A stretch of 64,000 bases of DNA from a virus. The DNA lies in the IMG/VR virus record IMGVR_UViG_3300046787_000200, positions 213,090 to 277,089 of that record. One strand, given 5' to 3'. Under the pieces are notes generated by a model. It searched no databases. It was not told the origin of the DNA and was given only the letters and a program-made list of their open reading frames with translations. A program made the position numbers and the translations under genes. Below, piece by piece: positions 2,007-62,985 of this stretch (position 1 is the first letter of the stretch; every line of letters begins with the position of its first letter).

Positions 2007-2489
2007 ATGGCAAATAAAAAATTCTTTTCAACAAAAACATACAGACAAATAGGTCCTGTCGCATACCGTCAATGGCGTGCTGATAGTCATTGTAATTTGA
2101 TTCATGGCTATGCTATGAGTTTTCACTTTGAGTTTGAAGCCGACACACTAGATGCTCGTAATTGGGTAACTGACTTCGGTGGACTACGCCCACTTAAAGA
2201 TAAACTAGAAGAATGGTTTGACCATACTCTATTAGTCGCACAAGATGATCCTATGCGTGATGAACTATTGCGTTTAGGTGAATTGAAACTAGCAAAGATT
2301 ACAGAAGTAGAACGCACTGGCTGTGAAGGTATTGCTGACTTCTTGTATGAATACATTAACACAATCTTCTTGCCCAATTGCGGTAGTGAAGAAGCTAAAC
2401 GTGTATGGTGCTGTAGAGTAGAGGTCCGTGAGACTGATAGTAATATGGCAGGGCGTGGTGGTCACCGAGAAGATAGAGAGTTTGAATGA
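2007..2489 (+). CDS. queD: 6-carboxy-5,6,7,8-tetrahydropterin synthase (QueD / PTPS family)
   Basis: 160 aa. CxxHGH-type motif SHCNLIHGYAMSFHFEF matches the QueD zinc site and fold pattern. Confidence 0.8.
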   Translation: MANKKFFSTKTYRQIGPVAYRQWRADSHCNLIHGYAMSFHFEFEADTLDARNWVTDFGGLRPLKDKLEEWFDHTLLVAQDDPMRDELLRLGELKLAKITEVERTGCEGIADFLYEYINTIFLPNCGSEEAKRVWCCRVEVRETDSNMAGRGGHREDREFE

Positions 2490-3661
2490 GCAAAAGAGTA
2501 GCAGTAATCGGTGCAGGCATTACCGGCATCACAACAGCATATTACCTTGCTAAACAAGGTTATCAAGTACACGTGTACGAACAAGAGCCTTACCCCGCAA
2601 TGCGTACTAGCTTTGCTAACGGGGGTCAGGTCTCTGTAAGTAACAGCGAAGTATGGACTACATGGAGTAACGTCAAGAAGGGCATCAAGTGGCTCTTTAA
2701 GAAAGATGCTCCACTACTCATTCGCCCTCGTTTAGATTTCAAACAATGGAAGTGGATCGCAAAGTTCTTATACAATACTGCCACCAATCAGTATGAAAAG
2801 AACACTAGCGAAACAATTAAAATGGGCCTAGAATCTAGTAAGTTGTACAAAGAGATTATTTACACAGAGAAACTATCGTTCGACCAATCACCTAGTGGCA
2901 TCTTGCACTTCTACAAAGACGACCAATACTTTGAAGCCGCTAAACAAGCACAAACTATCTATCGTAGTAATGGTTGCGAGTGGGATATTGTTAGTACACA
3001 AAAAGTTAAAGAACTAGAAAGTAAACTAGAATCTGTTAAAGGTATTGTAGGTGGTGCTTGGACATTAAGTGATTGGACCGGAGACATTCACAAGTTTTGT
3101 ATTGAACTAGAGAAAGTATTAAAGAAGAAATACGGTGTAGCCTTCATTTACAATACAACAGTTACCAAAGAGTATATGCAACAGCTAGTTAATTTGTATG
3201 ATAGTGTTGTTGTGTCAGCGGGTGTAGGTAGCGTTGAAATTGCTAAGTATGTCGGTGATAACCTTGATATATATCCAGTCAAGGGTTATAGTATCACTAT
3301 TAACAACGTAGATAAGAAACACTTACCTATCGTTAGTCTATTAGATGACCAGGCAAAGATTGTTACATCAACATTGGGCAACAAGTTCCGTGTTGCAGGT
3401 ACTGCTGAACTTGCAGGTGAGAACTACGATATCAGACACGATAGAGTTAAACCACTATTAGATTGGGTAAGAACTAACTTCCCGAATATCAATACGCATG
3501 ATTACAGTAGTTGGGCTTGCTTGCGACCAATGACTCCTAATATGATGCCTATTACCAAATGTAGTGACAAGAATAGTAAAGTGTACTATAATACAGGACA
3601 CGGTCACTTAGGCTGGACATTAGCACCATACACAGCAAAACTTATTTCGGAACAAATATGA
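2486..3661 (+). CDS. FAD-dependent oxidoreductase (D-amino-acid oxidase / ThiO-like)
   Basis: N-terminal Rossmann motif VAVIGAGITGITTAYYL. C-terminal GHGHLGW block. ATGA overlaps with both neighbours. Confidence 0.7.
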   Translation: MSKRVAVIGAGITGITTAYYLAKQGYQVHVYEQEPYPAMRTSFANGGQVSVSNSEVWTTWSNVKKGIKWLFKKDAPLLIRPRLDFKQWKWIAKFLYNTATNQYEKNTSETIKMGLESSKLYKEIIYTEKLSFDQSPSGILHFYKDDQYFEAAKQAQTIYRSNGCEWDIVSTQKVKELESKLESVKGIVGGAWTLSDWTGDIHKFCIELEKVLKKKYGVAFIYNTTVTKEYMQQLVNLYDSVVVSAGVGSVEIAKYVGDNLDIYPVKGYSITINNVDKKHLPIVSLLDDQAKIVTSTLGNKFRVAGTAELAGENYDIRHDRVKPLLDWVRTNFPNINTHDYSSWACLRPMTPNMMPITKCSDKNSKVYYNTGHGHLGWTLAPYTAKLISEQI

Positions 3662-4506
3662 GTCATTTAAAAGTATCAGAGTTATTTTACAGCATTCAAG
3701 GTGAGGGTAGATACATGGGTGTTCCCTCCGTGTTCTTACGAACATATGGATGTAATTTTACATGCGGTGGATTCGGCATGTCTAAGGGAGAAGTTAGTAG
3801 TGAGAGAGATGTTATTGCGATTAAAGCAGAAGATTATACAGATTATAAATCCCTACCGCTTGTCAGTACGGGATGTGATAGTTACGCAAGTTGGGACCCT
3901 AGGTTTAAACATCTTAGTCCTGTGCTCACTACCGATGCTATTGCTAGTAGCATTATGGATATACTTCCTCATGGGCGTTGGATGGATGAGCATCTTGTTA
4001 TTACAGGTGGTGAACCTCTTCTCGGTTGGCAAAGAGCGTATCCAGAATTACTTTCGCATGAAAAAATGAAGGCATTGAAAGAGATTACATTTGAAACTAA
4101 CGGCACACAAGAACTGAGTCAAGACCTTAAAGTATATCTACAACAATGGAAGATCAACAGAGAAAAGAATGCATTAACATTTAGTGTAAGCCCTAAATTA
4201 AGCATTAGCGGTGAGAAGTGGGAAGAAGCAATTCGTCCTGAGATTATTCATCAATATGAAAGTATAGGCTTTGTATATTTGAAGTTTGTTATTGCTACGA
4301 GTGAGGATGCACTTGAAGCAGATAAGGCAGTTAAAGAATATCGTCACAGAGGATTTAGAGGGCCAGTATACTTTATGCCATGCGGTGGTGTAGAATCACT
4401 TTACAATCTAAATGCTAAGAATGTAGCTATTGAAGCAATGAATCGAGGATATAGATACAGTGATAGATTGCAAGTGCCGTTGTTTAAAAATGAATGGGGA
4501 ACATAA
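3658..4506 (+). CDS. queE: 7-carboxy-7-deazaguanine synthase-like radical SAM protein (QueE)
   Basis: N-terminal ELFYSIQGEG matches the QueE signature. Cysteine motif is GCNFTCGGFG, i.e. non-canonical spacing. Confidence 0.7.
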   Translation: MSHLKVSELFYSIQGEGRYMGVPSVFLRTYGCNFTCGGFGMSKGEVSSERDVIAIKAEDYTDYKSLPLVSTGCDSYASWDPRFKHLSPVLTTDAIASSIMDILPHGRWMDEHLVITGGEPLLGWQRAYPELLSHEKMKALKEITFETNGTQELSQDLKVYLQQWKINREKNALTFSVSPKLSISGEKWEEAIRPEIIHQYESIGFVYLKFVIATSEDALEADKAVKEYRHRGFRGPVYFMPCGGVESLYNLNAKNVAIEAMNRGYRYSDRLQVPLFKNEWGT

Positions 4507-4688
4507 TGAAAGAAATAGTAATAACAAGAAATCAATTTGAGAAATTAAAAGAAGTTTTTGAAATGTACGACCTTGATAGAGTTGTTTGGAAAGAAAATTC
4601 ATCTAGTGGCATCGGTCCCACAGTTACAATTGAATTTGATCCAAAGAGCACAATGAAGATGGACATCACCGATGTTGATAGTTGGTAA
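4494..4688 (+). CDS. hypothetical protein
   Basis: 64 aa ORF overlapping the queE stop; in the operon orientation. Confidence 0.4.
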   Translation: MGNIMKEIVITRNQFEKLKEVFEMYDLDRVVWKENSSSGIGPTVTIEFDPKSTMKMDITDVDSW

Positions 4689-4705
4689 TAATATAAAGGA
4701 AATTA

Positions 4706-5806
4706 ATGAGTTATTTATTTACAAGTGAGAGCGTATCGGAGGGACACCCTGATAAAATTGCAGATGCAATTAGTGATAAAGTATTAGATTTAGTAATGAC
4801 ACATGAGGATCGAGCATTACGTTGTGCATGTGAAACATTGGTTACTACTAATCGTGTTATTGTTGCAGGTGAGTATAAAGGAGTATTGCACAACGAAGCC
4901 GTAGAAAATGCTGTACGTGATGTTATTAAAGATGTAGGTTATGAACAATTAGGTTTTGATTGGCGTACAGTAGAGATTACTAATCTATTGCACGGACAAA
5001 GTGCTGATATTGCGTTAGGTACAGATACGTTTGGTGCAGGTGATCAAGGATTAATGTTTGGCTATGCATGCAATGAAACAGATGTACATATGCCCTCAGC
5101 TATCTATTGGGCGCATCGTATTGTAGAAGAACTAACACAGATTCGTAAGTCAGGGTCAGTTGAATGGTTAGGTCCAGATGCTAAAAGTCAAGTAACATTT
5201 GAATATAACGATGACAATACACCTAAGCGTATTAGTAAAGTAGTGTGTTCAACGCAACACAGTGAAGGTATTGATATCAATTCAGTTAGAATGGGTGTTG
5301 AGAATATCATTCGAGGAATACTACCGGAACAATATTTAGACAATGAAACTGAATTCTTTATTAACCCAACTGGTCGATTTGTTATCGGTGGTCCTGATGG
5401 TGACACTGGGCTTACTGGCCGTAAGATTATCGTTGATACTTATGGTGGGTATAGCCCTCATGGTGGCGGAGCCTTCAGTGGCAAAGATCCTACTAAAGTG
5501 GATAGGTCTGCTGCCTACATGATGCGATATATTGCTAAAAATATTGTAGCAAGCGGACAAGCAAACTGGGCTACTTGTCAGATTAGTTATGCTATTGGTA
5601 TGGCACAACCTATGAGTTTCTACATTGAAACTGCACATACTGAACAAAGTCGCACACTAACAAAATGGGTACAAGACAATGTTGATTTGACACCTAACGG
5701 TATCATTGATCGTTTTGATTTGTTTAGACCGATCTATAGTAGCACAACTAACTATGGTCACTTTGGTAAGCCAGACTTGCCTTGGGAAAAAGTAGATTTG
5801 TTCTAA
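4706..5806 (+). CDS. metK: S-adenosylmethionine synthetase
   Basis: 366 aa. SESVSEGHPDKIADAISD N-terminus and MetK-wide conservation. Confidence 0.9.
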   Translation: MSYLFTSESVSEGHPDKIADAISDKVLDLVMTHEDRALRCACETLVTTNRVIVAGEYKGVLHNEAVENAVRDVIKDVGYEQLGFDWRTVEITNLLHGQSADIALGTDTFGAGDQGLMFGYACNETDVHMPSAIYWAHRIVEELTQIRKSGSVEWLGPDAKSQVTFEYNDDNTPKRISKVVCSTQHSEGIDINSVRMGVENIIRGILPEQYLDNETEFFINPTGRFVIGGPDGDTGLTGRKIIVDTYGGYSPHGGGAFSGKDPTKVDRSAAYMMRYIAKNIVASGQANWATCQISYAIGMAQPMSFYIETAHTEQSRTLTKWVQDNVDLTPNGIIDRFDLFRPIYSSTTNYGHFGKPDLPWEKVDLF

Positions 5807-10759: not shown

Positions 10760-11791
10760 ATGCACTCATTTGACACTACTAACAAACGTATCGGTTTCGC
10801 CTGTAAATGGGCAGAAATCAATAAAAAAGGTGAGATTGTATCTGCCGAAGGTCTTAACACTGGTGGTACTACACAAGCTTGGGCAAAGCGTAATAGTCGT
10901 AGTGTAGTAGAAGAAAAGATTATGGATGTTGCTAAACGTAACATTATGAATACTCACGCATTGGTTAAGAAAGTTGCTACACTTGAACCCGAACTACGAA
11001 TGTTGCGTCTTACTAGTGATATGCTCAGTTTCTATACTATGGATGAATACAAAGACTTTTGGCATTCAACTGATGTTCAGAATTCGCTTGAACGTTGGAT
11101 GGCTCCTATCGGTGAAACTGCTCGGGCTAATGACGTTCGCTTGTCATTTCATCCTGACCAATTTGTAGTTTTAGCAAGTGACCGTGAAGAAGTAGTAAAT
11201 AAGAGTATAGATGAATTTGAATATCACGTTGACATGGCTAGATTTATGGGTTATGGTCAGAAGTTTCAGGATATCAAAATCAATGTTCACATTTCTGGTC
11301 GTAAAGGTCCTCAGGGCATCAGGGATGTGTATGGTAGACTTAGCCCTGAGGCACGAAACACACTAACACTAGAGAATGAGGAATACACACATGGACTTAC
11401 TGACTGCTTATCATTATCTGACCTCGTACCTACGGTCATGGACATACATCATCACTGGATTCGTGAGGGAGAATACATCGATTGTAATGACGTACTTGTT
11501 AAAAGGGTTATTGACAGTTGGCGTGGCGTACGCCCTACTTTACATTATTCTGTCAGTAGGGAAGATTGTCTTGTTGAACACTCCCGAAATGAACGTCCCT
11601 CCCATAATGCGTTGATTGAGGCAGGATACAGTAAACAGAAGCTTAGGGCACACAGTGATTACTATTGGAATGATGCAGTGAACGATTGGGCATTGACATT
11701 TATTGATAGTTTTGATATGATGTGTGAAAGCAAAGCTAAGAACTTAGCTAGCTTTAAATTACTAGAGAGATACAAATGTTTGAAAAATTAA
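10760..11791 (+). CDS. uvsE: UV DNA damage endonuclease (UvdE/UvsE family)
   Basis: RLSFHPDQFVVLAS ... INVHISGRKG ... TLENEE ... DIHHH ... RAHSDYY align with UvsE catalytic blocks. Confidence 0.75.
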   Translation: MHSFDTTNKRIGFACKWAEINKKGEIVSAEGLNTGGTTQAWAKRNSRSVVEEKIMDVAKRNIMNTHALVKKVATLEPELRMLRLTSDMLSFYTMDEYKDFWHSTDVQNSLERWMAPIGETARANDVRLSFHPDQFVVLASDREEVVNKSIDEFEYHVDMARFMGYGQKFQDIKINVHISGRKGPQGIRDVYGRLSPEARNTLTLENEEYTHGLTDCLSLSDLVPTVMDIHHHWIREGEYIDCNDVLVKRVIDSWRGVRPTLHYSVSREDCLVEHSRNERPSHNALIEAGYSKQKLRAHSDYYWNDAVNDWALTFIDSFDMMCESKAKNLASFKLLERYKCLKN

Positions 11792-26853: not shown

Positions 26854-27054
26854 ATGACAAATTTAGAAGTAAGAGAGAAGCTTTTGCAGGCACAAGATTT
26901 ACTATCCGATGTTTATCATTGGGCTAAGCAACCACATACCAAGTTTACTGGTATGGATATGAATAGTCAGATAGCTAGGTACACAAGCGATGCCGATTCT
27001 TCTATTAATGATTCCCTTGAGGAATTAAAACATCCCAATGGATGTATGCCTTAA
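26854..27054 (+). CDS. hypothetical protein
   Basis: 66 aa ORF. Confidence 0.35.
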   Translation: MTNLEVREKLLQAQDLLSDVYHWAKQPHTKFTGMDMNSQIARYTSDADSSINDSLEELKHPNGCMP

Positions 27055-27064
27055 GGAGTTAAGA

Positions 27065-28414
27065 ATGAGTGCAAGTTGGATTAATAAACTAAACGAATCA
27101 GATAGTCGCCTTCATAAGGAAGATGTACTCAAACAGGCATTAGAGGCAAGTGTCCTCGGTAGTGACAATGCTATCAAATTTTTGACATTGACTAAACTTA
27201 CATATAATCCCTATGTGACATTCGGTGTCAGAAAAGTTCCTGATACTGTGGGCATCGTTGATGCAGAAAATCCTTGGGAAGACTTTGATAAACTATTGTG
27301 TGAGTTAGGTTCACGAGGCTTGTCAGGTAATGCCGCACTTGATGCTATCAATGAAATGAGTGAGCGGTTTAACAGTGACGAATGGAATACATTCTGTGCT
27401 CCTGTTATTCGCAGAGACTTACGAGCAGGTATTAGCGATAAGACAATCAATAAAGTTTGTAAAAAGACTGACTACGAGATTCCTGTATTCGGTTGTCAGT
27501 TAGCAACTAACTGTGAAGGTCGCCCAGAGATGAAGGGTACTAAGCGTTTAGAGCCTAAACTTGATGGTGTGCGTGTATTGATGTTTGTGATTCCCGGTGC
27601 AGATTTCGGCATCACTACAGTTTGCTATAGTCGTAATGGTAAAGTGTTTGATAACTTTACACATATTGAACAACAAGTTAGTGATAACTTTGTTAAGATT
27701 GTTCGTGCTTGTAATGGTACCGATCAAGGTCGTAGTTTGATTGATGGCTTTGTATTAGATGGTGAAGTGATTGGTAATACATTCCAAGAACTGATGCGAC
27801 AGGCACGCCGTAAGACTGATGTACAAGCCGATGATAGTGTGTTTAATATCTTTGATATTATTCCATTAAGTGATTTCCGTCAAGGTCATTATAATGCACA
27901 ATTGCGTAAGCGTATCGCATTACTTGATAGTATGCGCCCAGTCGTTGACGAAATGCCCAATGTAGAGTTGTTGCCACACATCATGGTTGACTTAGATACT
28001 GCGGCAGGCAAGGATCAGTTCAATAGATATTGTAGAGATATGGTAGAAGCTGGTTTTGAAGGTGTGATGATTAAAGAGTTAGAAGCACCATACATCTGTA
28101 AGCGTAGCACTGATTGGATGAAATATAAACCCACATTAACGGTAGATTTGGAGGTCGTATGTGTTGAAGAAGGTACTGGTAGAAACTTGGGAAGACTTGG
28201 AGCATTGGTTTGTCATGGAGTTGACGACGGGAAAGAAATTACAGTCAATGTGGGTAGTGGCTTTAGTGATGGTGATCGAGATGATTACTGGACTAATCGC
28301 AATCTGGTCATTGGTCGAACTGCTGAAGTATTGTGTGATGTGATTACACAGAACAGGGATGGTACTTACAGTTTGCGTTTCCCTCGCTTTATTAGATTCA
28401 GGGATGACAAATGA
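27065..28414 (+). CDS. ATP-dependent DNA ligase
   Basis: Motif I EPKLDGVR (KxDGxR). Start set at the ATG after AAGGAG. Size is T4/T7-ligase-like. Confidence 0.7.
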   Translation: MSASWINKLNESDSRLHKEDVLKQALEASVLGSDNAIKFLTLTKLTYNPYVTFGVRKVPDTVGIVDAENPWEDFDKLLCELGSRGLSGNAALDAINEMSERFNSDEWNTFCAPVIRRDLRAGISDKTINKVCKKTDYEIPVFGCQLATNCEGRPEMKGTKRLEPKLDGVRVLMFVIPGADFGITTVCYSRNGKVFDNFTHIEQQVSDNFVKIVRACNGTDQGRSLIDGFVLDGEVIGNTFQELMRQARRKTDVQADDSVFNIFDIIPLSDFRQGHYNAQLRKRIALLDSMRPVVDEMPNVELLPHIMVDLDTAAGKDQFNRYCRDMVEAGFEGVMIKELEAPYICKRSTDWMKYKPTLTVDLEVVCVEEGTGRNLGRLGALVCHGVDDGKEITVNVGSGFSDGDRDDYWTNRNLVIGRTAEVLCDVITQNRDGTYSLRFPRFIRFRDDK

Positions 28415-33460: not shown

Positions 33461-35029
33461 ATGCGCTTAAAATTCCTATCTTTTTCAAATCTTACATTAT
33501 TGGTTGCACTATCATTAAGTTCAGTAGCAGCCTGGTATAGTATCATTGGCTTAACCGCTATCTTTGCAGGTGCGGTTATTCCTGTTATCATTATGGGTTC
33601 TATACTCGAAGTAGGTAAGATTACTACTACAGTATGGTTACGTAAATACTGGCATCGTGCTAGTTGGGTACTCAAACTATATCTTGTTCCTGCTGTTGTA
33701 GCATTAGCATTACTCACAAGCATGGGTATCTTTGGCTTCTTAAGTAAAGCGCACATGGACCAAGGTATCACATCAGGTGATGTGCAGGCTAAGTTAGCAC
33801 TTTATGATGAGAAGATAAAGACACAAAGAGATAATATTGAGTTAGCACGTAAAGCATTAACTCAAATGGATAACCAAGTTGACCAACGATTAAGTAGAGG
33901 TGATAGTGAAACTAGTGCTGAACGTGCAGTTGCTATTCGTAGACAACAAGCAGGTGAACGTAGTAAACTACAAAAAGATATTGGTGATGCACAAACACAA
34001 ATTGCTAAACTAAACGAAGAACGTGCGCCTATTGCGGCAGAGAATCGTAAAGTAGAAGCAGAAGTAGGTCCTATCAAATATATTGCCGCATTAATTTATG
34101 GTGATACTGCTGATAATAATATGTTAGAAAGTGCGGTAAGATGGGTTATTATATTATTGGTTGTTGTATTTGATCCATTGGCAATTGCACTTGTTCTTGC
34201 CGCTAATGCAAGTAAAGAATGGGATCTTGAAGAACCCGCAGAATATGATAAACCAGATGCATGGGTTGCTGATGTAGGTGAAAAACCTACTGTAGAAGAA
34301 ATTGAACCAGCATACGAGCCAGATGACGGTCCATTAACTGAAGAACAGATTGAACAAATCAAAGAAAGTGTCGATCCTGCTCCACCTGGATGGATGTTTG
34401 AGAAAAGTTCTATTATAAAAGATGAACCAGAAAAGTCAGTTGCAGAGTTGCATCCATACTTGAATCAGCCGTTCACACACTTTACTGATACTAAGCCAAT
34501 GGTTGCGCCCAAAGAAGAAGTAAAAGAAGAACCTATCGTTGAGAAAAAGCTAAAGAAGAAACGTGCTAAGAAAAAGGTTGAGCCAACTATTGAAACAGTA
34601 GACGTAACTACTGAAGAAGTTGTATTGCCTCCGGTAACAAAGTATAAAGAAATGCCTGGTGGTTATGTTGACTTTGAAGGTAAGCAGATTCAAAAAGATG
34701 CATTAAAGAGTTTGCGTCCGGATTTGTTTATGGTTAAACCAGACAGAACAAATGGGCAAGTTGAAACAGATTTTGGAACAAAGTTCCCCGAAACAGCAAA
34801 ACGTGGTAATATCTTTGTTCGTGTAGATGTTTCTCCCAATCGTGTCTATAAGTTTGATGGCCGTCAATGGATTGAAATGCAAAAGGAACAAACCGATACA
34901 TACCTTCACAACCAAAAGTATATTGAATTCCTAGTAGGAAAAATAGAAAAAGGTGAGTATGATATCGAGTTATTGTCCGATACCGAACGTGAAGAAATTG
35001 CCCAATATTTAGGTAACCAAAAGAGTTGA
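33461..35029 (+). CDS. large membrane protein with an N-terminal multi-TM region and extended coiled-coil/charged domains
   Basis: 522 aa. Three or four hydrophobic helices in the first 100 aa, a heptad-like charged middle section, and another TM around residue 225. Confidence 0.5.
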   Translation: MRLKFLSFSNLTLLVALSLSSVAAWYSIIGLTAIFAGAVIPVIIMGSILEVGKITTTVWLRKYWHRASWVLKLYLVPAVVALALLTSMGIFGFLSKAHMDQGITSGDVQAKLALYDEKIKTQRDNIELARKALTQMDNQVDQRLSRGDSETSAERAVAIRRQQAGERSKLQKDIGDAQTQIAKLNEERAPIAAENRKVEAEVGPIKYIAALIYGDTADNNMLESAVRWVIILLVVVFDPLAIALVLAANASKEWDLEEPAEYDKPDAWVADVGEKPTVEEIEPAYEPDDGPLTEEQIEQIKESVDPAPPGWMFEKSSIIKDEPEKSVAELHPYLNQPFTHFTDTKPMVAPKEEVKEEPIVEKKLKKKRAKKKVEPTIETVDVTTEEVVLPPVTKYKEMPGGYVDFEGKQIQKDALKSLRPDLFMVKPDRTNGQVETDFGTKFPETAKRGNIFVRVDVSPNRVYKFDGRQWIEMQKEQTDTYLHNQKYIEFLVGKIEKGEYDIELLSDTEREEIAQYLGNQKS

Positions 35030-35035
35030 AAACAA

Positions 35036-35064
35036 TTAAGTATTAGTATATAATATACATATTG
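35036..35064 (+). promoter_or_regulatory. sigma70-like promoter TTGAAA-N17-TATAAT
   Basis: Upstream of the lipoprotein gene at 35085. Confidence 0.4.
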
Positions 35065-35084
35065 TAACAACTATCGGAGTAATT

Positions 35085-35705
35085 ATGAAGCTCACGCTTA
35101 TCGCATTGTCTTGTGTAATCTTTGCAGGATGTGCTAGTAATAAAGGTGAAATTCCTACTATTGAATCACAATCATTCAAAATCAGTAAAAATGAATCAAT
35201 CAAAATTGATAAAGCATGTGGTTGGATTCAACGAGATAAATGTACTATTGAAAGAATCGAAGCTGTTGGTGTTCAACCATCAGTAGGTGCAACACGTTCA
35301 TTGCAAAAATCAACTACACTTATGGCTTGTGATAACGCTAGAGCCAACGTAGTTAGTTATGTGTTCGGCACTAATGTTAGTGAGAATAGAGTTGCACGAA
35401 CAAAGAACAAGCAGAATGAAAATCAAAAAGACCGTGTAAAGTCTAAGACTGAGATTGGTCAAGATGTTGATATGGCAAGTGATGACAATGAGAAAGATAC
35501 TAATTACAGTATCCGAGAAGCATTGATTAACTCTGACATTGATATGGTTCGAACAATCACTACATCTAGTCAAGGTAAATTAGTTGGATTTAGGATTGAA
35601 GATGCTAGACCAATTGATGCTAAAACAATTGCTTGTACTATCACTTGGAGCAAGAATGATAGCCAAGATTTGAAGAAAGTCCGTAGTTTAATTTCAGGAC
35701 AATAA
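35085..35705 (+). CDS. lipoprotein (LPP20-like)
   Basis: Lipobox IFAGC and an LPP20-like VGVQPSVGATRS ... A..A..V block. Confidence 0.45.
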   Translation: MKLTLIALSCVIFAGCASNKGEIPTIESQSFKISKNESIKIDKACGWIQRDKCTIERIEAVGVQPSVGATRSLQKSTTLMACDNARANVVSYVFGTNVSENRVARTKNKQNENQKDRVKSKTEIGQDVDMASDDNEKDTNYSIREALINSDIDMVRTITTSSQGKLVGFRIEDARPIDAKTIACTITWSKNDSQDLKKVRSLISGQ

Positions 35706-36673
35706 TGAAAAAATTACTATCAGGATTGTTATGTCTGGTAGCTACAACTGCAGGTGCTATACAAGTTACTGGCGAAGGTTCTACGTTTGAAGAAGCAAAA
35801 CAAAATGCTTTTAAAACAGCAATTGAATTTGAAGCTGGTGCGGTTGTAGTTAGTGAACGTGAAAGCAGTAACTATAAATTAGTAAGGAATGAGATTCTAG
35901 TTTATAGTTCTGGCTACATCACTGATTATAAAATCATTAGTTCCATTAATCAAGGCAATCAATTCAAGGTATTAGTAGATGTTCAAGTTGCTAGTAACAA
36001 ACTAGCTGATAGGATATTGGGTGTAGGTAAGGATGCTAAAACTTTTGATACTGACAAACACAGTAATCAATATAATAGTTATTTGCAGGGTAAACAAAAC
36101 GGTGATAGATTGTTACAACAACTATTAAATGATTACCCTAAAAAAGCATACAATCTTACACAAGGTGTTCATCAGTTAAAAGTTGATGTTAATCGTAATG
36201 GTATCATTGAAATCCCATTAGAGTTACGTTGGAACTATAAGTTTATTGAATCATTTAATGAGGCACTTAAAATTTTAGAAGATGGTAGTAATGGTTTATT
36301 AAAAGCTAGTCCGAGTAACGTTACAGTAATGGCGAAGGATCCTAAAGATTGGGTAATAGGTAGTAAAAATCAGTATAAGTTTAATGATATGAATACTGTA
36401 TCTATGATTACGCAAACATTACAGAACAATCAACCTAGAATTTTAGTTAGCATTAAGAATCTTAATAACAAGATTGCATTTCAACAATGTTATATTCCCG
36501 ACTCAATGTCAGGAAAGAAGCCGGCATTTTATGATGCTAGCAATCACGTTGTAGTATATGGAAATCGTGTTGAGAAGAATAAAATTTTCTTAAATTTTGT
36601 AAACATGCACGAAGTAATTAAAGAGATTCAAAGCATAGAACTAAACATTGTAGCAGATAATAACTGTCCATAA
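35705..36673 (+). CDS. secreted/periplasmic protein with an N-terminal LPP20-like domain
   Basis: Signal peptide, then VTGEGSTFEEAKQNAFKTAIEFEAGAVVVSE. TAATG overlap. Confidence 0.45.
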   Translation: MKKLLSGLLCLVATTAGAIQVTGEGSTFEEAKQNAFKTAIEFEAGAVVVSERESSNYKLVRNEILVYSSGYITDYKIISSINQGNQFKVLVDVQVASNKLADRILGVGKDAKTFDTDKHSNQYNSYLQGKQNGDRLLQQLLNDYPKKAYNLTQGVHQLKVDVNRNGIIEIPLELRWNYKFIESFNEALKILEDGSNGLLKASPSNVTVMAKDPKDWVIGSKNQYKFNDMNTVSMITQTLQNNQPRILVSIKNLNNKIAFQQCYIPDSMSGKKPAFYDASNHVVVYGNRVEKNKIFLNFVNMHEVIKEIQSIELNIVADNNCP

Positions 36674-36711
36674 AAAATCATTCACATAAAAAAACACAGA
36701 TAAGTATTAAT

Positions 36712-37914
36712 ATGTCAACAGAAAACAAACTCAATCATTGCTCATTTTGTGATAAACACAAAGATGATGTTAAGAAACTAATTGTTAGCGAAGAAGTGGC
36801 AATTTGTAGTGATTGCGTAGAACTATGCAATTCACTTATGTTAGATGATGATGGTAAAAGTGAATTTGTATCGGAAGATACTGTATCATATGATCCAGAA
36901 TCAATTAAAGATTATCTTGACCAACATGTTATCGGACAAGATAATGCTAAAAAAGTGTTAAGTGTTGCTATTGCTAATCACTATAAACGTATCAACCGGC
37001 CACCAAAAGACTTAGAAATCTCTAAGGGTAATGTGTTGCTTGTTGGTCCTACTGGCTCAGGTAAAACATTGCTTGCTAAGACAGTTGCCAAATATCTCAA
37101 AGTGCCCTTTGTTGTAGCAGATGCGACAAGTATCACTGAAGCTGGTTATGTAGGTGATGACGTTGAATCCATGATTAGTATGTTACTCAATGCCGCTGGC
37201 GGTGATGTTAAACTGGCCGAGCGTGGTATTGTGTTCATTGATGAGATTGACAAGATTGCACGTAAAGGCGAATCTGCAAGTATCACCCGTGATGTGTCAG
37301 GTGAGGGTGTTCAGCAAGCTTTACTGAAAATGGTTGAAGGCACTGTATGTCGTATTCCAGCAGGTGGTGGACGTAAACATCCCGGTGGTGATATGATTGA
37401 GATTAACACTAAGAATATCTTATTCATTGCCGGTGGTGCATTTGTTGGGTTGAAAGATATTATTAAAAGTAGAGAAACTGGATCTAGTATCGGGTTCGGG
37501 GCTAAAATCAAAGATAAGAGCATAGAGGGCAATCTAAGCAACGTTAGCCCAGACGATTTAGTTAAATTCGGTATGATTCCTGAATTCATCGGACGTTTCA
37601 CTACTACTGTAAACGTAGAGGATTTGAGCAAAGAAGATTTGGTAAAGGTATTGACTGGTATTAAGAATAACTATATCGACCAATACAAGTATTTGCTGAG
37701 TTTAGACAACATTGAGTTAAACTTCACAGAAGATGCATTGGATCAGTTAGCAGAGAATACACTAGCATTGAAAACAGGTGCTCGTGGATTGCATACTGAG
37801 ATTGAGCGTGTATTGATGACACATATGTTTAATACTAAGAAATACCGTGAAAATAAAATTCTAAACATAAATATAGATAGAAAACAAATTTTGGAGCCAA
37901 AAGTATTAGTATGA
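36712..37914 (+). CDS. clpX: ATP-dependent Clp protease ATP-binding subunit ClpX
   Basis: N-terminal C4 zinc domain (CSFC ... CSDC), Walker A LLVGPTGSGKTLLAKT, and ClpX-wide similarity over 400 aa. Confidence 0.9.
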   Translation: MSTENKLNHCSFCDKHKDDVKKLIVSEEVAICSDCVELCNSLMLDDDGKSEFVSEDTVSYDPESIKDYLDQHVIGQDNAKKVLSVAIANHYKRINRPPKDLEISKGNVLLVGPTGSGKTLLAKTVAKYLKVPFVVADATSITEAGYVGDDVESMISMLLNAAGGDVKLAERGIVFIDEIDKIARKGESASITRDVSGEGVQQALLKMVEGTVCRIPAGGGRKHPGGDMIEINTKNILFIAGGAFVGLKDIIKSRETGSSIGFGAKIKDKSIEGNLSNVSPDDLVKFGMIPEFIGRFTTTVNVEDLSKEDLVKVLTGIKNNYIDQYKYLLSLDNIELNFTEDALDQLAENTLALKTGARGLHTEIERVLMTHMFNTKKYRENKILNINIDRKQILEPKVLV

Positions 37915-38126
37915 GAGGTAGAAAGGTTTTAGTTCAGGACGGAAACGTAGACAAAGCATTGCGAAAATTTAAAAAAATTATCGCAGACTATGGTACCTTG
38001 CAAGAGGTTCGTGACCGTCAAGAATTTGTAAAGCCTACTATCAAACGCAAATTAGCAAGAAGCCAGGCGAAAAGACGCTGGAACAAGTATTTGCGTGACC
38101 AAAGTCTTCCTAAGAAAAACTTTTAA
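37911..38126 (+). CDS. rpsU: ribosomal protein bS21
   Basis: 71 aa. KVLVQDGNVDKALRKFKK ... EVRDRQEFVKPTIKRK aligns with bacterial S21. ATGA overlap with clpX. Confidence 0.8.
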   Translation: MRGRKVLVQDGNVDKALRKFKKIIADYGTLQEVRDRQEFVKPTIKRKLARSQAKRRWNKYLRDQSLPKKNF

Positions 38127-38232
38127 GTTCCAAAATAGTAGATTTTTTTGCATATTTTTATTATAATAAATATGTATTCAGATGCCGATGGTCGGGTCTG
38201 AAATATGTCATCTTGCTTAAAAGGAGAAAAAA

Positions 38233-38685
38233 ATGACAAATCAATTAACCCTTCGTTCCTTAGACATTCCGTCTATTCATAAGTTCTCAGTCGGTTTCGA
38301 CCGTATGTTTGACGAACTAACTCGTAATCAAGCGCAACAATCAAACTACCCCCCATATAACATTGTACAAATCAATGAAGATGAATATATGATTAGTGTT
38401 GCTGTTGCAGGTTTCGGGCCTGATAATCTATCAGTTACAAAAGATAAAAACTTCCTAGTAATTGAAGGTAATCATGCATTGAATAGTATTAAAACTAACG
38501 ATGCAGATCCTGTATATCTACATAAGGGTATCAGTGAGCGTAACTTCCGACGTGAGTTCCGTTTAGCGGACCATGTAGAGATTGAGAACGCACATTTAGA
38601 ATTGGGTATCTTAAGTATTCACTTGAAACGTGAAGTTCCTGAAGAACAAAAGCCCAAGTCTATTGCAATTACCTACACTAAATAA
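38233..38685 (+). CDS. ibpA: small heat-shock protein (IbpA/IbpB, Hsp20 family)
   Basis: SVGFDRMFDEL ... YPPYNIVQINEDEYMISVAVAGF, i.e. the alpha-crystallin domain. Confidence 0.85.
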   Translation: MTNQLTLRSLDIPSIHKFSVGFDRMFDELTRNQAQQSNYPPYNIVQINEDEYMISVAVAGFGPDNLSVTKDKNFLVIEGNHALNSIKTNDADPVYLHKGISERNFRREFRLADHVEIENAHLELGILSIHLKREVPEEQKPKSIAITYTK

Positions 38686-38748
38686 TATAATAGTGTTTCA
38701 TTAAAACAAGTGTGCGGGGCAACTCGCACACATAACTAAAAGAAAATT

Positions 38749-39054
38749 ATGTCTAAAACTGATACTAAAATTAAAATCAAACCTAATCTTGCACTAGCAG
38801 AACCCCCATTGTATAAAATCATTTATATCAATGATGAAGTAACCAGTATGCAATTTGTAGTAAACAGTTTGATTAGTTATTTTAATTATAATGAAGATAC
38901 TGCAACTTCATTGACAGAGAATATTCATCATCAAGGTAGTGCAGTTGTTGCAGTTTTACCGTACGAAATTGCAGAGCAAAAGGGAATTGAAGTAACACTT
39001 GATGCACGTAGCAAGGGTTTTCCACTACAAGTCAAAGTAGAAGCTGAGGCTTAA
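38749..39054 (+). CDS. clpS: Clp protease adaptor ClpS (N-degron recognin)
   Basis: PPLYKIIYINDEVTSMQFVV ... HHQGSAVVAVLPYEIAE matches the ClpS core. Confidence 0.8.
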   Translation: MSKTDTKIKIKPNLALAEPPLYKIIYINDEVTSMQFVVNSLISYFNYNEDTATSLTENIHHQGSAVVAVLPYEIAEQKGIEVTLDARSKGFPLQVKVEAEA

Positions 39055-39752
39055 ACTTCTATATCAATGCGTTTAGGCCAATACGGTCTACGTCCGTAAT
39101 ATGAATTGTTGATATAATTAATATTTTCTATTGTTGTATCAACATTTTTATCATAACTTCCATATATCCAAGTAGATACTTTATGTTCAGAATCATGACC
39201 TAGTATCTGTGTTAACGGGATTTGATCACTTATCATATCTGGTTGTTCCCCAAAATATAAATTAGGTCCCGGAACTGAATGTGTAACTACTATTATCTTT
39301 TTTACATCTAAATGTAATTGTAGTTTTGATAGGCTTGATCCTATGTAAGATATATCTTCTACATGTTGTCCATGTAGGTGTAATTTCTCTAATGTTGACG
39401 GTGTATCAATGTTACTACCATACCATCCGTTAGTTCCCAATATAGCTATACCGTTTATAACGACAACATGTCTATGTAGGAACGCAACATTGTTTATTGA
39501 TTTACATATTTGATTTATTTCAAGGTATCTGTTTTTTACTAGATGAAGCGAATCATGTTCTAATGATCCTGCAATGTAAAAAATACCCTGATAAAATTTT
39601 GATAAATGAAGCAGGGTTTGATGTATTACTCGCAATTCACTGCTTATATTTCCAGCAATTATTAGGTATAGGCTTGTTGCCTTATTTTCCCAATTAAAGC
39701 TATCTTCAGCGCCTAAATTTAAGTCGCTGATAACATCAAACCCTATATTCAT
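39051..39752 (-). CDS. calcineurin-like metallophosphoesterase (weak motifs)
   Basis: 233 aa on the minus strand. LIIAGNIS, GSLEHD and VVTHS blocks. TAATG-coupled to the upstream minus-strand gene. Confidence 0.45.
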   Translation of the reverse strand: MNIGFDVISDLNLGAEDSFNWENKATSLYLIIAGNISSELRVIHQTLLHLSKFYQGIFYIAGSLEHDSLHLVKNRYLEINQICKSINNVAFLHRHVVVINGIAILGTNGWYGSNIDTPSTLEKLHLHGQHVEDISYIGSSLSKLQLHLDVKKIIVVTHSVPGPNLYFGEQPDMISDQIPLTQILGHDSEHKVSTWIYGSYDKNVDTTIENINYINNSYYGRRPYWPKRIDIEV

Positions 39753-40030
39753 TAAGCTTGAGTAGTTGGCTTAGCTTTTGGTGCTCTTGGCTTAGCTGGT
39801 GCTTTAGCCTTAGGTGCAGCCGGAGCTTTTGGCTTGGCTGGAGCTTTTGGCTTTGCAGGTGCTTTTGCTTTAGCTTTTGCCGGCGCCTTTTCAGCAACCG
39901 GAACAGGTGCTTCTACAGCCAATGGAATCGGCGTAGTTGCGGCTGGCTCTGGAACTTTGTATGGGGCAGATGGGGCTGCCTCTACTGGTTTAGCTGAAAA
40001 ACCAAACAAATTCTTTAAAAAATCTAACAT
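39752..40030 (-). CDS. Ala/Pro/Lys-rich (histone H1/AlgP-like KAPAKP repeat) protein
   Basis: 92 aa with repeats of KAPAKPKAPAKP. AGGAGA ribosome-binding site on the minus strand. Confidence 0.5.
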   Translation of the reverse strand: MLDFLKNLFGFSAKPVEAAPSAPYKVPEPAATTPIPLAVEAPVPVAEKAPAKAKAKAPAKPKAPAKPKAPAAPKAKAPAKPRAPKAKPTTQA

Positions 40031-40128
40031 TTCTGTCTCCTAAACATATATTTACTCGGGTTGGAAATCCGTATATTTTTTCCGTAAAGTACGCATTGTT
40101 ATGGGCAATATAGTATCATAAATACATT

Positions 40129-40620
40129 ATGTTCAGAAACGCAAATTTAGCCGAACTTATGCGTGAGGAGTTGCCTCCGATAGCATATCAAAAACGCCTT
40201 CTTTATAGAACGGACTATGATGAAGTTGTAGCACTTTATCGCCTGATTAATAAAACTATTTTCAACAATAAACTTATCATGCCTGAAATTGAGGTTATGC
40301 CACGTTGTAGAAAATACTGGGGAATGTGCTATGGTGCATTAAAAATGCCCACTAAGAATAAAAGCTTTTGCAAAATACGTATGATGGATAAATGGTATTG
40401 TCGTCAATGGTTAATTAATGTATTAGCACATGAAATGTGTCATCAATATCAATGGGATGTTGAGGGAGTTCGTAGACTTAATCGAGGACAACAACCTATA
40501 ATGAGTCATGGTCCTAGTTTCTTTGTATTCAGAGACAAATTAAAGAAACATGGCATAGCATTAAAAAGCGCACATAGCAAACGTAAGTGGTTTCACCATC
40601 AAAACTTATTTAAGTGTTGA
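40129..40620 (+). CDS. SprT-like zinc metalloprotease domain protein
   Basis: HEMCH (HExxH motif) in NVLAHEMCHQYQW. Confidence 0.45.
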   Translation: MFRNANLAELMREELPPIAYQKRLLYRTDYDEVVALYRLINKTIFNNKLIMPEIEVMPRCRKYWGMCYGALKMPTKNKSFCKIRMMDKWYCRQWLINVLAHEMCHQYQWDVEGVRRLNRGQQPIMSHGPSFFVFRDKLKKHGIALKSAHSKRKWFHHQNLFKC

Positions 40621-40638
40621 ATCTGATAAATACTCATT

Positions 40639-42278: not shown

Positions 42279-42866
42279 ATGTCTCTAGTACCAATCGTTA
42301 TTGAACAAACAAGCAAAGGTGAACGTAGCTATGATATCTATAGCCGTCTAATGCGTGACCGTGTTATTCTGCTTGAAGGTGAAGTTCACGACCAAATGGC
42401 AAATCTAATTGTTGCTCAACTACTATTCCTCGAAAGTGAAGGTGACAAAGATATCTCAATGTATATCAATAGCCCAGGTGGTAGTGTAACTGCTGGTATG
42501 GCAATCTATGATGCTATGCAATTCATTAAACCCGATGTACAAACAATCGTTATGGGTCAAGCTTGTTCAATGGGTTCACTACTCGCACAAGCAGGAGCTA
42601 AAGGTAAACGTATGATGTTGCCTAATGCACGACACATGATTCACCAACCCTCAGGTGGCGCACGTGGTATGCAAAGTGATATCGAAATCAGCTATAAAGA
42701 AATTACTTACTTGAAGAAACGCCTAACCGATATCTATGTCAAGCATAACAGTGCAGGAAAGACTTATGAAGAATTTGAACGAGACATGGACCGTGATAAG
42801 TTCATGTCGGCTGAAGAAGCATTAGCTTACGGCTTGATTGATAAAATTATTGAAAAGAGAGAATAA
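42279..42866 (+). CDS. clpP: ATP-dependent Clp protease proteolytic subunit ClpP
   Basis: [19 protein letters not shown]-type N-terminus. Catalytic-region blocks [23 protein letters not shown] and HQPSGG. Confidence 0.9.
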
Positions 42867-42867
42867 A

Positions 42868-43359
42868 ATGCCTTGGATCGAGAATATTGCATTAGTAGAT
42901 GTAGCGAAGGCTCGTCATCATAATGCTGGCGAAAACAGTATGCTAATACAAATTGTCGATCCGGCTATGGAGTTCCCTGCTCCGTTGCATAAGTTCAAAG
43001 AGATTCATCAGTTTGAGTTTTTGGACCTTGAAAGCAATGATCCATGGGGAGAAGAATTTAAAGTAACTGATTCACAAGCTGAAAGCCTTGTTAAGTTACT
43101 ACAACATGCATTGGAGAAAAGAATGAATGTAGTAGTTCATTGTGTCGCCGGTGTATGTCGCAGTGGTGCAGTTTGTGAAGTTGGTGTTATGATGGGCTTC
43201 AATGATACTGAAGCTTTTCGTAGTCCTAACTTAATGGTTAAGCATAAGATGATGAAGGTTCTAGGATGGACCTACGATGAAAACGAGCCCCATACAATCA
43301 ATGGTGTAACTACTGATTGGGGCTTCGTCCTACCAAAAGAGCGTGAGGGCGATATCTAG
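42868..43359 (+). CDS. protein-tyrosine / dual-specificity phosphatase (CX5R)
   Basis: VVVHCVAGVCRSGAV. Start trimmed to the ATG just after the clpP stop. Confidence 0.6.
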   Translation: MPWIENIALVDVAKARHHNAGENSMLIQIVDPAMEFPAPLHKFKEIHQFEFLDLESNDPWGEEFKVTDSQAESLVKLLQHALEKRMNVVVHCVAGVCRSGAVCEVGVMMGFNDTEAFRSPNLMVKHKMMKVLGWTYDENEPHTINGVTTDWGFVLPKEREGDI

Positions 43360-59772: not shown

Positions 59773-60321
59773 ATGAAACTTGACGAATTAGAAAAAAACA
59801 AAATGCCCCATCTATATTTGGATATGGATGGGGTCCAAGCTGATTTCTTTGGAGCTTGGGCAAAAAGACATGGCCTTACACATTACAAAGAAATACCTCA
59901 TCCAGAAGATGCTATTAATGAATTGGCTCATAGCAGTCCAAAAGAGGTATATCATTTCTTCCATAAGTTGCAACCACTACAAGGTGGTATGAAAATCATT
60001 CAATGGTTGCACAAAAACAAGATTCCGTTCACTGTATTAAGTGCCCCATTACGTGGCCCATATGCTAGTTCTAGTATACAAGCTAAAAAAGATTGGTTAG
60101 ACAAACATAATCCAGGCACTAGTAATAATGCTATATTTACTAGCAAAAAGTTTAAATATGCTACTGATAACGGTGAACAGAATGTGTTAGTAGATGACTT
60201 CGGTAGATACTTAGACGGTTGGAGTAATGCAGGTGGCATTGCAGTTAAGCACGAAGATAGTAATACCAATAATACAATTAATGAGTTAGAAAAGATTTAC
60301 GCACCTTATATAAACAGATAA
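59773..60321 (+). CDS. HAD-family 5'(3')-deoxyribonucleotidase-like protein
   Basis: LYLDMDGVQADF (the DxDGV-ADF motif I of the dNT family). Confidence 0.5.
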   Translation: MKLDELEKNKMPHLYLDMDGVQADFFGAWAKRHGLTHYKEIPHPEDAINELAHSSPKEVYHFFHKLQPLQGGMKIIQWLHKNKIPFTVLSAPLRGPYASSSIQAKKDWLDKHNPGTSNNAIFTSKKFKYATDNGEQNVLVDDFGRYLDGWSNAGGIAVKHEDSNTNNTINELEKIYAPYINR

Positions 60322-61686: not shown

Positions 61687-61902
61687 ATGGCTAAAGAAGA
61701 AGGCATTAGGATGGACGGTAAGGTAATCGATGTATTACCTAATGCCGTCTTTAGAGTTACATTAAACAGCGGTGCTACTGTTACCGGCTATATATCGGGT
61801 AAGATGCGTCAGCACGATATTAAAATACTATTAGGTGACACTGTAGAAATTGAGTTTAGTCCATATGATTTGACTAAAGGTCGCATAGTAAGACGCAGAT
61901 AA
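61687..61902 (+). CDS. infA: translation initiation factor IF-1
   Basis: 71 aa. [24 protein letters not shown] ... GYISGKMR ... [22 protein letters not shown] is near-collinear with bacterial IF-1 (S1/OB fold). Confidence 0.85.
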
Positions 61903-62652: not shown

Positions 62653-62985
62653 ATGAATTTAACAATCACCGAATCAGCAGCCGCTAGAATGGCTGAATTA
62701 TTAGCAGACGAAGGTTTAACAGACCACACTAGAGTTCGTGTTTTTGTTCAAGGAGGGGGCTGTTCCGGTATGGAATATGGCTTTACTTTTTCGGATGAAA
62801 AGAACGAAGATGACTGGGAAGTTCCAGCCGGCTCATCAGTTGTATTAGTTGATAGTATGTCAGCCCAATACTTAAGTAGCGCAGAAATTGACTATGTTGA
62901 AGATTTAAACGGTGCTAGATTCAAAATAAACAATCCAAACGCACAAACTACGTGCGGATGCGGTAGTAGCTTTAGTCCATTCTGA
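62653..62985 (+). CDS. iscA: A-type iron-sulfur cluster carrier (IscA/ErpA, HesB family)
   Basis: [15 protein letters not shown] and a C-terminal CGCGSSF. Confidence 0.8.

Follow-up and report, generated by a model that had tools for sequence, protein, structure and literature searches.

The stretch of DNA analysed here, hereafter the window, comprises 64,000 nucleotides of the IMG/VR virus record IMGVR_UViG_3300046787_000200 (positions 213,090 to 277,089 of that record). At 37911..38126 on its plus strand it carries a gene for a protein of 71 amino acids, MRGRKVLVQDGNVDKALRKFKKIIADYGTLQEVRDRQEFVKPTIKRKLARSQAKRRWNKYLRDQSLPKKNF, and we found that this protein is a genuine full-length homologue of the ribosomal protein bS21. 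Homology along the full length had been claimed in an earlier note, which was made from the letters and a list of their open reading frames (ORFs), and it passed the profile search: Pfam PF01165 (Ribosomal_S21) matches with 58.5 bits against a cut-off of 27 (E=5.5e-16, profile positions 2-53 of 55). The equivalog TIGR00030 (55.7 bits, cut-off 28.95, positions 1-57 of 58) and PHROG 21469, 'ribosomal protein S21' (E=2e-10), match as well, so that a significant match to the S21 family, the lack of which would have spoken against the note, was obtained with all three. A phmmer search of the PDB returned bS21 and bS21m chains exclusively. The protein is strongly basic (isoelectric point 11.1; K+R = 22 vs D+E = 7) and shows the core pattern that was used to test for the family, A-L-R-+-F-K-+ ... 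E-x-R-x-R ... K-P-x-x-x-R-K in a basic protein of about 55-90 amino acids. An AlphaFold2 model (mean pLDDT 76) has helices at residues 13-27, 29-38 and 42-65, and its best Foldseek match in the PDB, the mitochondrial bS21m 6nu2_AQ, is weak (E=0.056, TM 0.41). Little can be drawn from an isolated model, since the polypeptide is extended and acquires its fold on ribosomal RNA.

Loci were compared among the best 80 of 458 relatives of the window's ClpX (72-91% identical to it), which were obtained in a scan of IMG/VR. Across this clade, the S21 core residues A16, R18, K21, K22, E32, P42 and K47 are invariant, and none of the 73 related loci that have the gene shows a broken reading frame. The ratio of nonsynonymous to synonymous substitution rates (dN/dS) has a median of 0.117 and a maximum of 0.27 in 154 unsaturated pairs (0.05<dS<1.5) from 59 distinct coding sequences of related loci; the gene is thus under strong purifying selection. 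A homologue search with the window S21 gave 725 matches, and all 120 matches listed are at least 76% identical. With a GC content of 38.9%, against 36.6% for the window, the gene matches the phage and is therefore an old resident of it. Identity to the canonical bacterial types is ~40-47% (E. coli ~41% over 53 residues). The phage S21 proteins group as a separate cluster, have no N-terminal extension and carry a clade-specific invariant R56-W57 where canonical S21 has R-H.

The C-terminal tail has been studied in cellular bS21. It has been shown that the terminal RLY of E. coli bS21 packs in h37 and, in the head of the 30S subunit, stacks against A1167, and that Betaproteobacteria carry KLY in place of RLY (PMC7550191). 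Betaproteobacterial bS21 tails read either LPPKLY or, in Burkholderiales such as Polynucleobacter and Curvibacter, LPKKLY (PMC7550191 supplementary file 1), and some S21 tails of huge phages are KLY-like, in line with their hosts (PMC7550191). A comparison of the tail with S21 of the host type, which the earlier note had put forward, places the clade with the betaproteobacterial LPKKLY/LPPKLY type. The window S21 ends in LPKKNF, and the pattern LP[KP]K.[YF] is found in 52 of 52 distinct clade proteins, ten of which have exactly LPKKLY; the C-terminal consensus of the clade is ...RRWxKYLRDQxLPKKLF. Compared with KLY, the window tail keeps the basic and the aromatic position and has N for the middle L. 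By sequence, the phage S21 thus carries the six-residue tail type of betaproteobacterial bS21. Since these hexamers are shared, a betaproteobacterial host would be expected, as well as a protein shaped to dock like the bS21 of that host.

The best three matches in a scan of a genome collection for S21 are 52-56% identical and come from metagenome-assembled genomes (MAGs) labelled Haliscomenobacter (L081), Chitinophagales (L082) and Polynucleobacter (L083). The first and the third have N-terminal extensions and LPKKLY/LPKRLY tails, the second is without that tail, and each of the three genes is located on a short contig or else at the end of one. They may represent mis-binned phage DNA. We also considered that the phage protein might block the anti-Shine-Dalgarno sequence as described for Bacteroidetes, and rejected this: the phage uses Shine-Dalgarno (SD) sites, the tail is of the betaproteobacterial type, and W57 is off the position of F. 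johnsoniae Tyr54 in an ungapped by-eye comparison on a Flavobacteriaceae S21. Usage of SD sites in the window is clear, with an SD 4-mer in 45 of 121 ORFs (37%) vs 6.7% in the background, and this argues against a Bacteroidota host and against anti-SD sequestration.

Directly upstream of the S21 gene lies clpX (36712..37914, plus strand, 400 amino acids), whose stop codon overlaps the S21 start. Its identity is supported by NF003745 (520 bits, cut-off 359), by TIGR00382 (500 bits, above the cut-off) and by the Pfam domains zf-C4_ClpX, AAA_2 and ClpB_D2-small. Reading of the sequence confirmed the ATGA overlap described in the earlier note: the junction is gtATGAga, with ATGA at 37911..37914 on the plus strand and the TGA of clpX at 37912..37914, so that the two ORFs share 4 nt. 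S21 lies directly 3' of clpX in 73 of the 80 related loci. When these loci and the window are taken together, the two genes overlap in 74 of 74 cases, 62 of them as ATGA and the remainder by 1-35 nt. Moreover, none of 46 distinct contexts has an SD-like 4-mer (GGAG, GAGG or AGGA) 4-10 nt upstream of the S21 ATG. In the sub-clade of the window a GGAG is found 14 nt before the ATG (8/46 contexts), and other sub-clades have ACAG or AAAG there. In contrast, hsp20, the next gene downstream, has an invariant AGGAG.

Because the overlap is conserved in every junction and no context has an SD site at the usual distance, the translational coupling proposed in the earlier note gains support, and we consider it likely that S21 is translationally coupled to clpX. 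We also asked whether the S21 start might be hidden in a structure of the junction RNA, and this was ruled out, as no stable structure was found (z = -0.07). An unstructured junction fits termination-reinitiation rather than the unmasking of a hidden start. Scans of the locus for sigma-70 promoters and for terminators performed no better than on shuffled sequence, and the terminator scan found none 3' of S21.

The genome encodes a second translation gene, an IF-1 homologue at 61687..61902 (plus strand, 71 amino acids), which confirms a further statement of the earlier note with 78.4 bits to PF01176. In IMG/VR we found 241 homologues of this IF-1; they share contigs with clpX-S21 at a distance of ~13-30 kb. 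An IscA-like Fe-S assembly protein is encoded one gene downstream of IF-1.

Downstream of S21 the locus continues with genes for protein quality control, and the statement that S21 is embedded among Clp genes holds, since clpX, hsp20, clpS and clpP were all found in the window by profile. The hsp20 gene (38233..38685, plus strand) encodes an Hsp20/IbpA-like protein of 150 amino acids (PF00011, 59.6 bits; PHROG 432), which scores 130 bits with NF008013 IbpA, under the cut-off of 212. It is followed by clpS at 38749..39054 (plus strand, 101 amino acids; PF02617, 84.1 bits, cut-off 23). On the minus strand, 39051..39752 encodes a metallophosphoesterase-like protein of 233 amino acids (PHROG 1649, E=2.8e-9), which is syntenic in nearly all related loci. 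A SprT-like metallopeptidase at 40129..40620 (plus strand, 163 amino acids; PF10263, 32 bits, cut-off 25.6) is syntenic in most of them. The clpP gene lies at 42279..42866 on the plus strand (195 amino acids; PF00574, 267 bits), and a gene for a dual-specificity phosphatase directly 3' of it. ClpS is an adaptor of ClpA. A query with the N-domain of E. coli ClpA detected no ClpA in the window, and the phage ClpS would therefore act on host ClpA.

The gene order shared by the related loci is clpX-S21-(dnaK)-hsp20-clpS-233aa(-)-sprT, and on metagenome contigs encoding an 86%-identical S21 the same order extends to clpP. A full-length dnaK (625-648 amino acids) is variably present between S21 and hsp20 (L003, L013, L020-L023, L026, L041, L054, L060, L064 and others). 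Seven of the 80 loci have no S21 at the clpX position (L040, L046, L047, L053, L073, L074 and L080); in these, clpX is followed by the promoter and leader of hsp20 or by dnaK, the latter lying between clpX and hsp20 in L046, L047 and L080. The gene is therefore dispensable at this position, or has moved, and these loci are natural deletion variants unless it has been relocated elsewhere in the genome. Among smaller variations, L026 has an extra ORF of 247 amino acids, Cys/His-rich and resembling an HNH-type homing endonuclease, and in L035 and L077 other ORFs are inserted on the opposite strand.

A second scan of IMG/VR was made with the divergent S21 proteins P0124 and P0145, which are 40-59% identical to that of the window and have short N-terminal extensions. 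It returned 132 further viral loci, in which hsp20 (96 loci) and clpS (95 loci) follow shortly 3' of S21. A dnaK lies between S21 and hsp20/clpS in 73 of them, and clpX lies upstream in 21. Where clpX is missing, S21 is preceded by an ORF of 90-153 amino acids that often overlaps the S21 start, and a Pfam search of the ORFs upstream of S21 in these lineages gave no match. The deeply conserved unit is thus S21-(dnaK)-hsp20-clpS, and the clpX-S21 overlap is the state of one sub-lineage.

Two elements occupy the 106-nt spacer between S21 and hsp20. One of them, TTTTTGCATATTTTTATTATAATAAATATG at 38145..38174 (plus strand), is promoter-like, contains a palindrome and separates S21 from the hsp20 unit. 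This sequence occurs once in the window, where zero matches are expected by chance. An inverted repeat, CATATTT/AAATATG, flanks its TATAAT, and the half-sites covary among relatives, GCGTATTT...AAATACGT in some vs GCATATTT...AAATATGT in others (CATATTT/AAATATG vs CGTATTT/AAATACG). The element could serve as an hsp20-specific operator or promoter. The second element, at 38176..38238 on the plus strand, is a candidate for a ROSE-like RNA thermometer in the 5' untranslated region of hsp20. The Rfam model RF02523 (ROSE_3) matches this leader over its full length (model 1-69) with 27.1 bits (E=0.0014), which does not reach the gathering score of 43. Its first hairpin shows compensatory changes in eight of ten pairs across 33 loci, and an invariant CUUGCUUA lies 2-6 nt upstream of the AGGAG. 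Pairing of UUGCU with the SD was seen by eye; RNAalifold gave no such prediction. Such an arrangement is typical of the ROSE elements that precede proteobacterial ibpA genes. The leader is kept where dnaK, and not S21, precedes hsp20. Hence, the phage appears to carry a candidate ROSE-like thermometer before its hsp20.

Just 5' of clpX lie two genes that are syntenic and fast-evolving in the clade (25-77% identity). The first (35085..35705, plus strand) encodes a protein of 206 amino acids with a lipoprotein-type signal (…FAGC), the second (35705..36673, plus strand) one of 322 amino acids with a signal peptide, and both lack a Pfam match. Upstream of the first is the site (35026..35054, 11/12 positions) that most resembles a sigma-70 promoter in this neighbourhood.

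The window as a whole contains about 121 ORFs, nearly all on the plus strand and with very short or overlapping junctions, and the majority of them match neither Pfam nor PHROG. Searches of the 64 kb for tRNAs and, at gathering thresholds, for Rfam families found none. The contigs that carry the best 80 ClpX relatives are viral and up to 524 kb long, most of the large ones measuring 230-367 kb. The longest, IMGVR_UViG_3300027749_002876 (524,565 bp), has two diverged copies of clpX-S21 and two of IF-1 in opposite orientations (L003/L010, L170/L192); its two ClpX proteins are 89% and 81% identical to that of the window. Rather than a single genome, it probably represents two related phages that were joined in a chimeric or concatenated assembly. 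A megablast of 35000-42000 against cultured phages gave no match, and the best cultured relatives are distant, with S21 ~40% and ClpX ~50% identical. The source is an uncultivated large freshwater phage, probably of jumbo size. This assignment is made because the ClpX relatives with shared synteny sit on IMG/VR contigs and because the gene architecture is phage-like, with families known from PHROG only; as a caveat on it, the 64 kb contain no capsid, terminase or tail genes. Auxiliary genes, which span 2486..5806, 10760..11791, 27038..28414, 42868..43359, 59773..60321 and 62653..62985, include one for an FAD-dependent oxidoreductase (DAO). SAM synthetase, the UV endonuclease UvdE, an ATP-dependent DNA ligase and a 5'-3' exonuclease are further auxiliary products, together with an NT5C 5'-nucleotidase and a weak radical-SAM-like ORF.

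Viral bS21 has been described as the dominant virus-encoded ribosomal protein, mostly in aquatic viruses (PMC6375957). Huge phages have been shown to encode IF1, IF3, S1, S4, S21 and L7/L12, and it was proposed that their S21 redirects initiation (PMC7162821). The earlier note had named Flavobacterium phages as a precedent. Phage S21 precedents do exist, but the closer one is the huge-phage S21 with a KLY-like tail (PMC7550191). Those genes come, like ours, from very large uncultivated phages with IF-1 and a KLY-like C-terminus, and in both cases S21 is a proposed substitute for host bS21 at the site of initiation (PMC7162821, PMC7550191). However, many huge-phage S21 proteins have basic or aromatic N-terminal extensions, whereas the window clade has none in its 71 amino acids, and a fixed overlapping position behind clpX is not described for them (PMC7162821, PMC7550191).

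The sole phage bS21 with experimental incorporation into ribosomes is that of HTVC008M, which was shown to enter E. coli ribosomes (PMC6375957). This phage resembles ours as an aquatic phage of lytic type whose bS21 is host-derived, under purifying selection and proposed to compete with host bS21; it differs in its alphaproteobacterial origin, its 147-kb myovirus genome, and the tail and gene context of its S21 (PMC6375957). The HTVC008M S21 was absent among the tblastn matches to the window S21. Freshwater Bacteroidetes phages of up to 331 kb likewise combine bS21 with chaperones and Clp protease (PMC9723584). In these phages, however, S21 is encoded on the reverse strand and surrounded by genes for terminase, capsid and portal; their S21 proteins are Bacteroidetes-like and block the anti-SD with a conserved aromatic residue that corresponds to Tyr54, and their hosts do not use SD sites, whereas in the window S21 has proteostasis neighbours and a betaproteobacterial tail, and SD sites are used. 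Chen et al. 2022 (PMC9723584) include none of the window-clade contigs in their supplementary data.

The cellular rpsU of Betaproteobacteria resembles the phage gene in length (~70 amino acids), in the core motifs ALR+F+K and KP..RK and in its tail, LPKKLY or LPPKLY. It stands in a housekeeping context, whereas the window S21 lies behind clpX. The one betaproteobacterial-looking S21 examined (P0264) is 47% identical to that of the window; it has KRH where the phage protein has RRW, and the window tail ends in KNF. Among cultured jumbo phages, Vibrio phage 2.275.O (349 kb) has the order IF-3, S21 (RpsU3), ClpS-like at MG592671.1 31702..32933 (L378), and its ClpS-like protein is 32% identical to the window ClpS (E=2e-12). 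Its S21 is 41% identical and has the tail RKPKF; the neighbour is IF-3 and not IF-1, and there is neither a clpX overlap nor an adjoining hsp20. It is an independent case of S21 beside a Clp adaptor and an initiation factor. The jumbo phages Atu_ph07 and AP-J-162 belong to the same comparison, those of the Atu_ph07 type carrying ClpX, IF-3, S21, L7/L12 and Hsp20, but the ClpX of these phages is only ~50% identical to that of the window. The S21 gene of the OM43 phage Melnitz lacks chaperone or Clp neighbours. The literature thus already covers bS21 in phages, KLY-like tails, the presence of IF-1 in huge phages and that of Hsp20/Clp near S21. New here are the universal SD-less overlap with clpX in the clade, the depth of the S21-(dnaK)-hsp20-clpS synteny, the natural S21-less variants and the regulatory elements between S21 and hsp20.

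Overall, we favour the reading that the window encodes a functional phage bS21 which is made by reinitiation, exchanges into the 30S subunit and supports or tilts initiation, and we regard this combined reading as moderately probable. Ribosomes that end on clpX would re-initiate at the overlapping ATG, and the output of S21 would thus be tied to that of ClpX and not exceed it. As bS21 is loosely bound and exchangeable, the phage protein could then swap into host 30S subunits at the platform, beside the SD/anti-SD helix, while the K-x-F/Y at its terminus would contact h37/A1167 in the head, like RLY in E. coli. Together with the phage IF-1, S21 may sustain the host initiation machinery during infection and possibly tilt it toward phage messenger RNAs (mRNAs). 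S21 would also be a fixed member of the proteostasis cassette (clpX)-S21-(dnaK)-hsp20-clpS ... clpP, and remodelling of the ribosome and handling of new proteins would therefore be inherited, and probably expressed, together. The parts of this reading differ in strength. That the phage S21 binds the ribosome is very probable, given the conservation of its core and tail. A true selectivity for certain mRNAs is doubtful, and we put it forward tentatively; that S21 biases initiation to phage mRNAs is a standing hypothesis of the literature (PMC6375957, PMC7162821, PMC9723584).

Several points weigh against the favoured reading. Overlaps of the ATGA type are found in 22 of the 101 same-strand pairs of neighbouring ORFs in the window, and the clpX-S21 overlap may owe as much to genome compaction as to regulatory design. 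An S21 gene that lacks an SD site and is coupled would be expected to give modest amounts of protein, which is awkward if many ribosomes need converting. The absence of S21 from the clpX position in seven related loci is to be counted here as well. Ribosomes with HTVC008M S21 were nearly inactive in vitro, with ~5% of the wild-type activity (PMC6375957), and no relation was found between the consensus of phage and host ribosome-binding sites (PMC7550191). Finally, the host is probably betaproteobacterial, an assignment made from the tail motif alone. A scan of a genome collection for S21 was dropped as host evidence after it turned out to be driven by two peptide patterns and to return mainly S21 proteins of Bacteroidota, aligned over the core only.

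The alternative that survives best is a plain supplementation, in which an S21 equivalent to that of the host tops up the exchangeable protein after host shut-down, so that the overall capacity for translation is kept, without any preference for phage mRNAs. Core and tail are host-like and not specialised, the clade lacks the N-terminal extension of many huge-phage S21 proteins (PMC7162821), IF-1 is likewise a generic component of initiation, and in the study by Watson et al. phage S21 was not linked to ribosome-binding-site motifs (PMC7550191). On the other hand, the clade proteins form their own phage cluster with only ~40-47% identity to the canonical bacterial-type S21 proteins tested, the invariant R56-W57 suggests some functional divergence, and low, coupled expression suits bulk replacement poorly. 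We therefore think that supplementation is possible but rather unlikely.

In a more far-reaching reading, S21 would be a working component of a phage cassette for protein production and quality control, (clpX)-S21-(dnaK)-hsp20-clpS...clpP. The swap of bS21 would possibly follow the removal of the host copy by phage ClpXP or by ClpS-directed host ClpAP, and its regulation would be shared with that of the chaperones and proteases dealing with the resulting burst of phage protein. We consider this improbable as things stand; if true, it would account for the persistence of the linkage down to ~40% S21 identity and for the adjoining of S21 and ClpS in the Vibrio phage.

S21 might also act outside the ribosome together with ClpX, ClpS, DnaK or Hsp20, its role being for example that of an adaptor, of a substrate-like regulator or of an RNA chaperone. 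The persistence of the S21-(dnaK)-hsp20-clpS synteny to ~40% S21 identity and the ClpS-like gene adjoining S21 in Vibrio jumbo phage 2.275.O agree with such a role, as does a survey of 900 published S21 phages, in which Hsp20 (n=127) and two Clp pVOGs (n=50 and 47) were among the commonest neighbours within ten genes (PMC9723584). Gene order in related phages can, however, be mere inheritance. Moreover, the phage protein keeps every residue by which the ribosomal family is defined, along with the tail that contacts the head, which would be hard to account for if it did not bind ribosomes. The Melnitz phages have S21 without a chaperone neighbour, and Bacteroidetes phages place S21 amid late structural genes (PMC9723584). 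An extraribosomal role is thus very unlikely.

Less probable still is that the phage S21 serves as an inhibitor or decoy, displacing host bS21 and disabling host-type initiation for shut-off. The low activity of E. coli ribosomes with HTVC008M S21 would fit this, but that assay was done on a heterologous ribosome and the authors themselves suggested incompatibility (PMC6375957). The phage also relies on the same ribosomes, many window genes use ordinary SD sites, and the likeness of the tail to that of the host speaks for a proper fit. A chance ORF or a decaying passenger without function, for which the S21-less loci (7/80) could be cited, is refuted to near certainty by profile scores at twice the curated cut-offs, a dN/dS of 0.12, the intact frames (73/73) and the 725 homologue matches, of which all 120 listed are at least 76% identical.

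Our data leave the current concepts unchanged; the known hypothesis on phage S21 is sharpened. The clade provides an unusually clean test system, since it combines a protein of cellular length, a tail that matches a defined host group, expression that is probably tied to clpX, an IF-1 gene and S21-less variants. Earlier surveys recorded the association of S21 with proteostasis genes without interpreting it. The wide conservation of S21-(dnaK)-hsp20-clpS indicates that genes for remodelling the ribosome and genes for proteostasis travel together in many aquatic phages.

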